From NCBI RefSeq assembly GCF_003018235.1, contig NZ_CP027437.1: a stretch of 64,000 bases of DNA. One strand, 5' to 3'. Position 1 is the first letter of the stretch; every line of letters begins with the position of its first letter. The stretch is from Escherichia coli. GTDB taxonomy: Bacteria; Pseudomonadota; Gammaproteobacteria; Enterobacterales; Enterobacteriaceae. Shown one piece after another: positions 1-3,000 of the stretch. Position numbers: made by a program.

Positions 1-3000
1 GGCGCAGGCGGCGCAGCGCACCTGCCTGGCATGATTGCCGCCAAAACGCTGGTGCCAGTGCTGGGCGTGCCAGTACAGAGCGCCGCACTGAGCGGTGTCG
101 ATAGTCTCTACTCCATCGTACAAATGCCGCGCGGCATTCCGGTGGGTACACTGGCGATTGGTAAAGCTGGCGCGGCAAACGCGGCATTACTGGCAGCACA
201 AATTCTCGCGACTCACGATAAAGAGCTACACCAGCGTCTGAATGACTGGCGCAAAGCCCAGACTGACGAAGTGCTGGAAAACCCGGACCCGCGAGGTGCG
301 GCATGAAACAGGTTTGCGTCCTCGGTAACGGGCAGTTAGGCCGTATGCTGCGTCAGGCAGGCGAACCGTTAGGCATTGCTGTCTGGCCGGTCGGGCTGGA
401 CGCTGAACCGGCGGCAGTGCCTTTTCAACAAAGCGTGATTACCGCTGAGATCGAACGCTGGCCGGAAACCGCATTAACCCGCGAGCTGGCGCGCCATCCG
501 GCATTTGTGAACCGCGATGTGTTCCCGATTATTGCCGACCGTCTGACTCAGAAGCAGCTTTTCGACAAGCTTCACCTGCCGACCGCACCGTGGCAGTTAC
601 TTGCCGATCGCAGCGAGTGGCCTGCGGTGTTTGATCGTTTAGGTGAGCTGGCGATTGTTAAGCGTCGCACTGGTGGCTATGACGGACGCGGTCAATGGCG
701 TTTACGCGCCGATGAAACCGAACAGTTACCGGCTGAATGCTACGGCGAATGTATTGTCGAGCAGGGCATAAACTTCTCTGGCGAAGTGTCGCTGGTTGGC
801 GCGCGCGGCTTTGATGGTAGCACCGTGTTTTATCCGCTGACGCATAACCTGCATCAGGACGGTATTTTGCGTACCAGCGTCGCTTTCCCGCAGGCCAATG
901 CGCAGCAGCAAGCGCAAGCCGAAGAGATGCTGTCGGCGATTATGCAGGAGCTGGGCTATGTGGGCGTGATGGCGATGGAGTGTTTTGTCACCCCGCAAGG
1001 TCTGCTGATCAACGAACTGGCTCCGCGTGTGCATAACAGTGGTCACTGGACGCAAAACGGTGCCAGCATCAGCCAGTTTGAGCTGCATCTGCGGGCGATT
1101 ACCGATCTGCCGTTACCGCAACCGGTAGTGAATAGTCCGTCGGTGATGATCAACCTGATTGGTAGCGATGTGAATTATGACTGGCTGAAACTGCCGCTGG
1201 TACATCTGCACTGGTACGACAAAGAAGTCCGTCCGGGGCGTAAAGTGGGGCATCTGAATTTAACCGACAGCGACACATCGCGTCTGACCGCGACGCTGGA
1301 AGCCTTAATCCCGCTGCTGCCGCCGGAGTATGCCAGCGGCGTGATGTGGGCGCAGAGTAAGTTCAATTAACCTGGTGCTCATATTCTTGCCGGATTCGGC
1401 GTGAACGCCTTATCCGGCTTACCACTCCGGTACCCATTGTAGACCTGATAAGACGCGTCAAGCGTCGCATCAGGCATGGTGCGCCGATTGCCGGATGCTC
1501 TCATCACTACAGCGAAATACAGGTCCCCGCTTCGCCCGCCAGCGTCTCTTCAATCCGCGATAACGCCCCAATCCACGCAGGTTTGCCACGGCTTCTGACA
1601 TAGCCACTCACCGCCATTACCTTCGGCCCCATCGAACCATCGGCTTTGGCAAATGGCGCTAACTCATCCGGTGTGGCATGGCGAATGGCACGTTGCTGCG
1701 GGGTTCCCCAGTTTTCATATACCGCATCAGCATCGGTGAGGATCACCAGTCCATCGGCATTAATCTGCTCGGCGAGCAACGCAGCGGCGAGATCTTTATC
1801 AATCACCGCTTCACTCCCTGCCCCATCATCCGTCACAGGCACACCGCCGCCGCCGCTGCAAATCACCACATGCCCTTCTTTGAGCAACAACTCAATAGCT
1901 TCGCTGTCGAGAATTTTACGCGGTTGCGGAGACGCCACCACCCGGCGCAAGTATTTACCATCACGTTTCATCTGCCAGCCGTAAGCTGCTTCTAGTGCCT
2001 CTTGTTCTTCTGGCTGATAAACCGGACCAATAAACTTCTCTGGCTGCAAAAACGCCGGATCATCAGGCGAAACCTCAATGCGCGTCAGCACCGTCGTCAC
2101 GGGCGGCATCTGCGGCTGTGCGCTCAAGCTCTGCGCCAGCATATAGCCAATCATCCCCTAGCTTTCCGCCACCAGCACATCCAGCGGATACGGTTCTACC
2201 TCTTTCCACGCCAGATTCTGTAACGCCAGCAGCCCCACCTGCGGCCCGTTGCCGTGAACAATCGCCAGCCGATAAGAACGGGCCAGGCGCGCCAGCGCAG
2301 GTACAGCGCTGGCGATATTGCGATATTGATTTTCTGCCGTCAGCGCCTCACCGCGCTGAAGCAAGGCATTGCCCCCAAGAGCTACAACCAGTGTTTTCAT
2401 GGTTTTCCTTGTAATAATTGTTGACCAAGCCAGAACCCCAGCAGCGTATCTGCCCCTGACGTATGCCCCAGCGCCAGCAGCGAATCAATCGCAACAGCGG
2501 TACGTTTCGGGCAACTCAGAGCATGAACAAAGTGCAGGAGTGGCGAGGCGAAATATCCTTGCGCGGCATAACGTAAATAACTGACGCTCACCGCTGTGGT
2601 AACGAGTTGAAGATGGTCGGAACAGGCAAAAAACGGGCGACCGGAGCGCGCATCTAAAGCGCCATAATACCAGGCTGCCAGCAGCATTCCCGTCAGCGTG
2701 TCATCATGACTCGGCGTTAATCCCGGCCCTTTACCCAGCCAGTGCCGCCAGTCGGTCTTAACGCCATTGAGCGCGGCCTGAAAACAGTGACGAAACTGGC
2801 GTAATTCAGCAGGCAGCGGATCGCTTGTCGCCATCGCCAGTGGCCCGAAAAGCCCGGTTTCCTCCGCGCGTTGCATCCATGCAGCTGCAAGCGGTTGAGG
2901 ATGCGCAGGCGGCGTAATACGCAGCAAACAATAACGCTGTGGCTGTTTAACCGTGAAACGCCCGAGGCGAATCCCTTGTGCCACAACCTGCGGTCGTTCA

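Follow-up and report, generated by a model that had tools for sequence, protein, structure and literature searches.

The allK gene (ybcF) in the DNA analysed here, a stretch of 64,000 nucleotides from Escherichia coli that we refer to as the window, very probably is a genuine loss-of-function allele, which arose by a single C-to-T change from Gln-81 to an amber codon and which is present in every sampled member of a clonal lineage. It is a nonsense pseudogene of an ordinary kind, recent and specific to the lineage, in a gene whose loss is frequent.

The interrupted allK gene

The gene, for which allK is the current name, occupies positions 1507-2400 on the minus strand of the window; the strand was not mentioned in the first-pass annotation. 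Translation of this strand gives 80 residues, a stop, a segment beginning with GM and the natural stop, which are 298 codons including the terminator. The residues flanking the internal stop are ...LDVLVAES and GMIGYML...TCISL. The 297 aligned codons (80, TAG, Gly and 215, i.e. Met-83 and 214 more) are collinear with intact YbcF, and the ORF listing contains the two parts as 2158..2400 (80 aa) and 1507..2154 (215 aa). The coordinates and codon counts given earlier (80 codons, stop, Gly-Met, 215 codons, 297 in total) thus agree with both translation and ORF listing. The following features were assigned.

1507..2400, minus strand: pseudogene of the catabolic carbamate kinase AllK (ybcF), 297 codons with a stop at codon 81 (translation, DNA identity, NF006926 profile)
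2161..2400, minus strand: N-terminal 80-codon piece with the GGNAL and HGNGPQVG motifs (translation, ORF listing)
2157..2161, minus strand: Dcm site lost in the window, where the CCAGG of intact alleles reads CTAGG, inner C altered (alignment, motif scan)
2158..2160, minus strand: amber codon TAG, codon 81, CTA on the plus strand (translation, alignment)
2160, plus-strand position: mutated base, G in intact alleles and A in the window
2155-2157, minus strand: Gly codon GGG after the stop
2152-2154, minus strand: Met-83 codon ATG
1507..2154, minus strand: residual 215-codon ORF from Met-83, 3 nt past the stop, C-terminal 72% of the enzyme (ORF listing, NF006926 positions 83-296)

Intact, annotated ybcF with 90-98% DNA identity to this part of the window is found in more than 5,400 complete E. 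coli genomes. The earlier identification as a carbamate kinase gene was upheld by translation, by alignment and by the match to NF006926, the NCBIfam equivalog profile for carbamate kinase. When Gln-81 is restored, the protein scores 620.3 bits against this profile (positions 1-296 of 297; cut-off 416 bits) and 425.6 bits against TIGR00746 (arcC; cut-off 358 bits). The separate pieces behave differently. The 80-residue piece reaches 158.7 bits against NF006926, far under the cut-off. The 215-residue piece, at 438.3 bits, narrowly exceeds it but covers profile positions 83-296 only, and it remains under the TIGR00746 cut-off with 296.7 bits. In public assemblies this residual ORF appears as a separate gene call. 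An uninterrupted frame for the whole carbamate kinase fold is absent from the window, codon 81 being an in-frame TAG.

The solved structures closest to the repaired protein are all carbamate kinases (8crv_A, 1e19, 2e9y, 1b7b and 3kzf; E = 1.6e-89 to 3.6e-37), with 8crv_A at the top (E = 1.6e-89). The residue of 8crv_A opposite Gln-81 is Glu, so that the damage would come from truncation and not from loss of the side-chain. AllK of K-12 (YbcF, b0521) shares with the window the 297 codons, a DNA identity of 97-98% for annotated ybcF and the locus order purK / ybcF-ylbF-ylbE-fdrA / allD-allC-allE. It differs in having CAG instead of TAG at codon 81, and the window ORF is accordingly split into 80 and 215 codons. 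One further substitution, Thr to Met in ...GPKV[T/M]AVSGY..., distinguishes the window from K-12 and is shared by intact alleles such as the one in E. coli 7/2.

Alignment with the intact ybcF genes of E. coli ETEC1738 and C1 revealed the ancestral codon. Both have CAG at codon 81, and over 121 aligned bases the C-to-T change in this codon is the sole position at which the window is unlike both. As the intact alleles have CAG and the window TAG, the change is C to T on the coding strand, Gln-81 to amber. This confirms the initial guess of a CAG-to-TAG change.

The first-pass annotation had left room for a base-call error, by which the true base would give CAG and ybcF would be intact. A substitution of one base is the smallest possible error, and two homopolymer-length frameshifts in other genes of the window could hint at a noisy assembly. 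However, the same TAG is present in four independent assemblies. The Logan assemblies SRR8930575 and SRR18191694 each match the window at every one of 3,709 bases, SRR18885539 differs from it at two bases, and GCA_902841295.1 (NCBI) has three differences over 3,652 bases. Both homopolymer frameshifts also recur in independent Logan assemblies, and hence the assembly of the window is accurate. A sequencing or assembly error is thereby ruled out for practical purposes, its residual probability being negligible. With a stop that is premature relative to intact orthologues and reproduced in independent data, the locus is a unitary pseudogene, and we infer that the amber codon inactivates ybcF in the source strain.

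The lineage has been sequenced independently many times, with the stop in every sampled member. The exact 215-residue product was found in 38 blocks of the public-assembly collection, each time with the 80-residue ORF ahead of it; on public contigs, the exact 215-residue product occurs on 29 and the exact 80-residue product on 168. The only organism name linked to the latter comes with the entry 'putative carbamate kinase domain protein [Shigella flexneri 6603-63]', and it probably belongs to a haplotype other than that of the window (the group of loci L011 and L013 described below). The allele is therefore already in public databases, where it has gone uncommented.

Origins of the amber allele and the Dcm site

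The Q81TAG allele is rare, though recurring. A search with the 81-mer around the stop gave no 100% match among 5,418 complete RefSeq E. coli genomes (best match 80/81), and the TAG-bearing 30-mer had no match among the GTDB species representatives. Compared with 5,426 complete E. coli genomes, the window reached 98.3-99.0% identity at best. We extracted ybcF from 16 TAG-bearing sequences, namely 15 public loci and the window. These fall into at least eight ybcF haplotype groups, which differ from one another at 7-59 of 894 nt and include one Shigella flexneri genome. The recurrence of the allele in unrelated strains was not part of the first-pass annotation, nor was the fact that the mutated C is the Dcm-methylated base.

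Two of the carriers are one base from intact alleles. The TAG allele of locus L003 differs from the intact allele of E. coli 7/2 by a single change over 1,101 nt, the C-to-T in codon 81, and that of locus L012 differs from the intact allele of E. coli C1 by the codon 81 base only. From this it follows that Q81TAG arose more than once, and the comparisons point to repeated, independent origin in unrelated E. coli and Shigella backgrounds. Alternatively, TAG might have arisen once, long ago, and have been spread over the haplotypes by short-patch recombination. E. coli does recombine, and the region is mosaic: in GCA_902841295.1, identity to the window is 99.9% over fdrA-ybcF and 98.2% in the adjacent purK. 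Nevertheless, we regard a single ancient origin as improbable. In L003 and L012, the codon 81 base is all that separates the allele from common intact ones over 894-1,101 nt. An imported patch that brought no other marker into L003 must have been under about 130 nt long, a less parsimonious assumption, and another carrier (L015) has diverged by 6.5%. Other nonsense sites of ybcF occur on multiple backgrounds in the same way, and recurrent mutation is the simpler account of all of them.

The sequence around codon 81 suggests how the change may have come about. The intact context AGC-CAG-GGG contains CCAGG, a Dcm site, and in the window it reads AGC-TAG-GGG, containing CTAGG (on the plus strand, CCTGG has become CCTAG at 2160). 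The altered base is the inner, Dcm-methylated C, and the lesion thus has the sequence form of a Dcm deamination, an inner C-to-T change in an ancestral CCWGG. A motif scan found two CCWGG sites in intact ybcF, and of their four deamination outcomes one, at codon 81, makes a stop. Among the 25 changes by which a transition could create a stop in ybcF, codon 81 is the sole one at a Dcm site.

The mutation is of a textbook type. The amber hotspots of lacI, at the second C of CCAGG, were over-represented about 10-fold (Coulondre 1978, reviewed in PMC12606429). The sites described by Coulondre, Miller, Farabaugh and Gilbert (1978) share with allK a CAG within CCAGG, the change of the second C to T, and the resulting CTAGG amber. 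The excess of about 10-fold in lacI was measured relative to other nonsense sites, whereas for codon 81 of allK the methylation is presumed. Very-short-patch repair (Vsr) acts on T:G mismatches in CTWGG/CCWGG (PMC2715241). The dcm and vsr genes lie outside the 64-kb window.

Nonsense alleles at other positions of ybcF served as controls. The minimum numbers of backgrounds and of full-length alleles are as follows.

Q81TAG: transition at the Dcm site; at least 8 backgrounds, at least 16 full-length alleles
Q90TAG: transition, non-Dcm; at least 5 backgrounds, at least 7 full-length alleles
Q54TAG: transition, non-Dcm; at least 3 backgrounds, at least 6 full-length alleles
W65TGA: transition, non-Dcm; at least 3 backgrounds, at least 3 full-length alleles
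W65TAG: transition, non-Dcm; at least 2 backgrounds, at least 2 full-length alleles
E67TAG: transversion; at least 1 background, at least 5 full-length alleles

The background counts are de-duplicated and all of them are lower bounds, from which a 10-fold excess at codon 81 can be neither demonstrated nor excluded. Every transition nonsense site recurs at the sampled depth, so recurrence alone does not single out codon 81. As proof of a Dcm hotspot, recurrence is weakened by the controls Q54, W65, Q90 and E67. We also compared the window with E. coli SC418 over 20 kb. At the 50 Dcm sites of this stretch, transitions were found at one of 100 inner positions (codon 81 itself) and at six of 100 outer positions, with a background rate of 2.3%; a general Dcm signature was not seen in this comparison. 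Deamination of 5-methylcytosine at the Dcm site, escaping very-short-patch repair, is a plausible origin of Q81TAG, to which we give about even chances. It is rated no higher because non-Dcm sites recur as well and the 20 kb show no excess at inner C positions.

Vsr activity has been reported to stimulate CTAGG-to-CCAGG changes (PMC2715241). Codon 81 could accordingly be imagined as a reversible toggle, switched off by deamination and back on by Vsr, and possibly selected through the spending of carbamoyl phosphate. Lineages would in that case turn allK off and on more often than by ordinary mutation. The occurrence of Q81TAG at a Dcm site on at least eight backgrounds is compatible with such a toggle, which we nevertheless hold to be very unlikely. 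Nothing speaks for it in particular: nonsense sites outside Dcm motifs show a comparable recurrence, and a reversion was not observed.

Predicted consequences for allantoin catabolism

The ybcF product has been shown experimentally to be the catabolic carbamate kinase AllK of K-12, the strain for which activity (carbamoyl phosphate + ADP -> carbamate + ATP) was demonstrated, and the gene is the last one co-transcribed in the fdrA (allF) operon (PMC9843812). AllFGH (fdrA-ylbE-ylbF) is oxamic transcarbamylase (PMC11326118), and AllS and ArcA are activators of the allFGHK operon (PMC12535856). The oxamate branch, which the first-pass annotation called 'proposed', can no longer be described in this way, as both AllK and AllFGH have been demonstrated by experiment (PMC9843812, PMC11326118, PMC12535856).

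In the window, the order fdrA-ylbE-ylbF-ybcF downstream of allDCE, with genes overlapping or adjacent and coordinates identical to those in SC418, identifies the genes as the allFGHK operon. The three other members are intact.

2397..3212, minus strand: allH (ylbF), intact, 271 codons (position and size match annotated E. coli SC418; no internal stop)
3223..4482, minus strand: allG (ylbE), intact, 419 codons (ORF listing, SC418 comparison, no internal stop)
4492..6159, minus strand: allF (fdrA), intact, 555 codons, opening the allFGHK operon (ORF listing, SC418 comparison, no internal stop; operon from PMC9843812)

No internal stops were found in allF, allG, allH, allD, allC or allE of the window, and from glxK through allA the ORF lengths are as expected. 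Since allK is the last gene of allFGHK and converges on purK, the stop should have no polar effect. We considered a general genome decay of the Shigella type and rejected it, as the 64 kb contain one IS element and the other allantoin genes are intact. Two accessory-island genes in the window are frameshifted.

Translation of allK would end after 80 of 297 residues. The N-terminal phosphate-binding glycine motifs would remain in the fragment, but the remainder of the amino-acid-kinase fold, with its nucleotide-binding half, would be missing; an active carbamate kinase is therefore not expected from allK. With AllFGH intact, oxalurate should still be split to oxamate and carbamoyl phosphate. 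The ATP-yielding step would be lost, and with it one substrate-level ATP per oxalurate. Carbamoyl phosphate would presumably be consumed elsewhere, in the synthesis of pyrimidines and arginine or through other kinases. K-12 has two paralogous carbamate-kinase-like genes, yahI and yqeA.

An obvious growth defect is probably absent. In a clean ybcF deletion, anaerobic allantoin degradation and growth were without significant change, and Kim and Kim ascribe the missing phenotype to the use of carbamoyl phosphate in arginine and pyrimidine synthesis (PMC9843812). The growth test on allantoin suggested in the first-pass annotation is unlikely to show much in view of this deletion result.

Some function could in principle persist, either by read-through of UAG (by a suppressor tRNA encoded elsewhere in the genome or a near-cognate tRNA-Gln, which would put back the wild-type residue) or as a split enzyme assembled from the 80- and 215-residue pieces after re-initiation at Met-83. 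The downstream ORF is in frame, its ATG lies 3 nt past the stop behind a purine-rich stretch, and between two diverged TAG alleles the 215-residue part is free of residue changes. A Gln-inserting suppressor (supE) would restore AllK exactly. Nevertheless, no tRNA gene was found in the 64-kb window, natural isolates seldom carry amber suppressors, and UAG is read through at a basal level well below 1%. According to the alignment with 8crv_A, the break falls within the N-terminal lobe of a single-domain amino-acid-kinase fold. The unchanged residues are explained just as well if the mutations were independent and recent, in alleles that had been functional shortly before, and related isolates have added lesions in the same operon. 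We therefore consider a still-working allK highly improbable; the split enzyme in particular is conceivable but unsupported.

The loss itself might also be adaptive, in that an AllK knockout would leave carbamoyl phosphate available for making pyrimidines and arginine, where the enzyme would turn it into ATP, CO2 and NH3. Many independent ybcF nulls exist, and Kim and Kim propose biosynthetic use of carbamoyl phosphate in their deletion strain (PMC9843812). Selection for the knockout is unlikely all the same. Each null is rare, Q81TAG being absent from the 5,418 complete genomes, and the range of 10-180 contigs per allele overlaps the counts for fragments that simply stop at a contig break. 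The genes allG, allH and allF are also hit in the same strains, which resembles relaxed selection on the whole branch, and the deletion mutant showed no growth advantage (PMC9843812). Loss of function by plain nonsense mutation, under weak selection, remains the preferred reading. The repeated loss of allK and of the rest of allFGHK in E. coli and Shigella fits the published absence of a deletion phenotype.

In the annotation of the source genome, allK should be marked as a pseudogene. Metabolic models of this strain should omit the carbamate kinase reaction of the oxamate branch, which yields ATP, but retain AllFGH. Beyond correct annotation the allele has little significance and opens no long-standing question, but it is a neat natural case of the textbook amber at a Dcm-methylated C position.

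Age of the allele and further decay of the branch

Between the ybcF genes of the window and SC418 there are 27 nucleotide differences and two residue differences, one of which is the stop. This ratio indicates purifying selection on ybcF until recently, and the amber allele itself appears to be recent.

Additional lesions have accumulated in other carriers of Q81TAG. The sister isolate SRR18885539 (L007) has a second nonsense mutation, K238* in allG (AAG to TAG), and at loci L011 and L013 allF, allG and part of allH have been lost. Other ybcF nulls in public data comprise Q54TAG, a stop at Q61, W65TAG/TGA, E67TAG, Q90TAG and several frameshifts, many of them on multiple backgrounds. These natural nulls of E. 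coli and Shigella affect the same gene with the same predicted consequence as Q81TAG; they differ in position or type of mutation, and only Q81TAG lies in a Dcm site. Judging from these sequences, ybcF has collected many different nulls, as would be expected of a weakly selected gene. The numbers of contigs with possible nonsense fragments were discarded as a measure of frequency. They are uninformative, as fragments from ordinary contig breaks (for example 78-, 112- and 117-residue 'partial' proteins) reach similar numbers. In Shigella boydii 3594-74, a 107-residue frameshift product of ybcF has received a name of its own.

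Relationship of the window to complete E. coli genomes

The window lies unusually far from every one of the 5,426 complete E. coli genomes in RefSeq; identity to any of them reaches at most 98.3% for positions 1-20000 and 99.0% for positions 24600-33100. ETEC1738 is the complete genome matching best; its ybcF allele, the nearest among the intact alleles compared directly, is 16 nt apart from that of the window. The window comes from an E. coli-group lineage which has no representative among the 5,426 genomes.

Additional lesions and non-coding features around the all genes

In four public loci that share the amber codon in allK (ybcF), the operon carries a second lesion. 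A further nonsense codon, K238* (AAG>TAG, position 1384 of the locus), is present in allG of the sister isolate SRR18885539. Two other carriers (L011 and L013) have lost allF, allG and part of allH, and allH is truncated in another (L014). These changes fit a picture in which the amber lineages with second lesions can dispense with the entire oxamate branch.

Two non-coding features were located in this part of the window:
1379-1506, convergent intergenic spacer between ybcF and purK
9585-9651 (-), STnc480, an enterobacterial sRNA, between allE and glxK

The spacer fails to align with its counterparts in two public loci (L003 and L004) while the flanking genes do align, and short-read contigs of the window's lineage stop within it, at position 1446. 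Both observations suggest a repeated (REP-like) or variable element in the spacer. The STnc480 assignment is an Rfam match of 87 bits (gathering score 72).

Frameshifts in the SiiEA island

The SiiEA type I secretion island, which is carried by 958 of the 5,426 complete genomes, contains two frameshifted genes in the window:
40083-61753 (-), siiEA, giant BapA-related adhesin gene, lesion near 60781
61865-63218 (-), TolC-family outer-membrane gene, lesion near 62377-62383

The intact siiEA of E. coli AF39 encodes 6,925 aa. One G is missing from a GGGG run in the window, which splits the gene into 341 and 6,892 aa; the 341-aa fragment is also present in the public short-read assembly (Logan) of run SRR8930575. 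The TolC-family gene is broken into two pieces (307 and 196 aa) by one additional base in an A run, A7 as compared with A6 in AF39. This frameshift is genuine and common to independent samples, as the identical 307-aa product was found on 10 independent contigs. Taking the siiEA and TolC-family lesions together, the entire adhesin system looks inactivated in the window's lineage.

Accessory elements

Further elements lie between mnmH and ybbP and between ybbJ and cueR:
22672-22760, dinQ-like toxin, next to the transposase gene, with a match to AgrB antisense RNA
23387-24367 (-), IS621-family (IS110, RNA-guided) transposase, 326 aa
33137-33478 (-), small ORF
33827-35629 (+), coiled-coil protein of 600 aa whose C-terminus carries a YadA-like membrane anchor (trimeric autotransporter adhesin)
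35715-36137 (+), small ORF
36344-36748, cueR (flanking gene)

The position between mnmH and ybbP is presumably occupied by the rhsD region in K-12. The 2-kb stretch 22600-24620 is matched over at least 80% in only seven complete E. coli genomes, the best matches (99.6%) being VCSW5 and VCSW7, which were isolated from soil and sediment. The ybbJ-cueR stretch, with the YadA-like adhesin and two small ORFs which gave no family matches, looks like a small accessory insertion.
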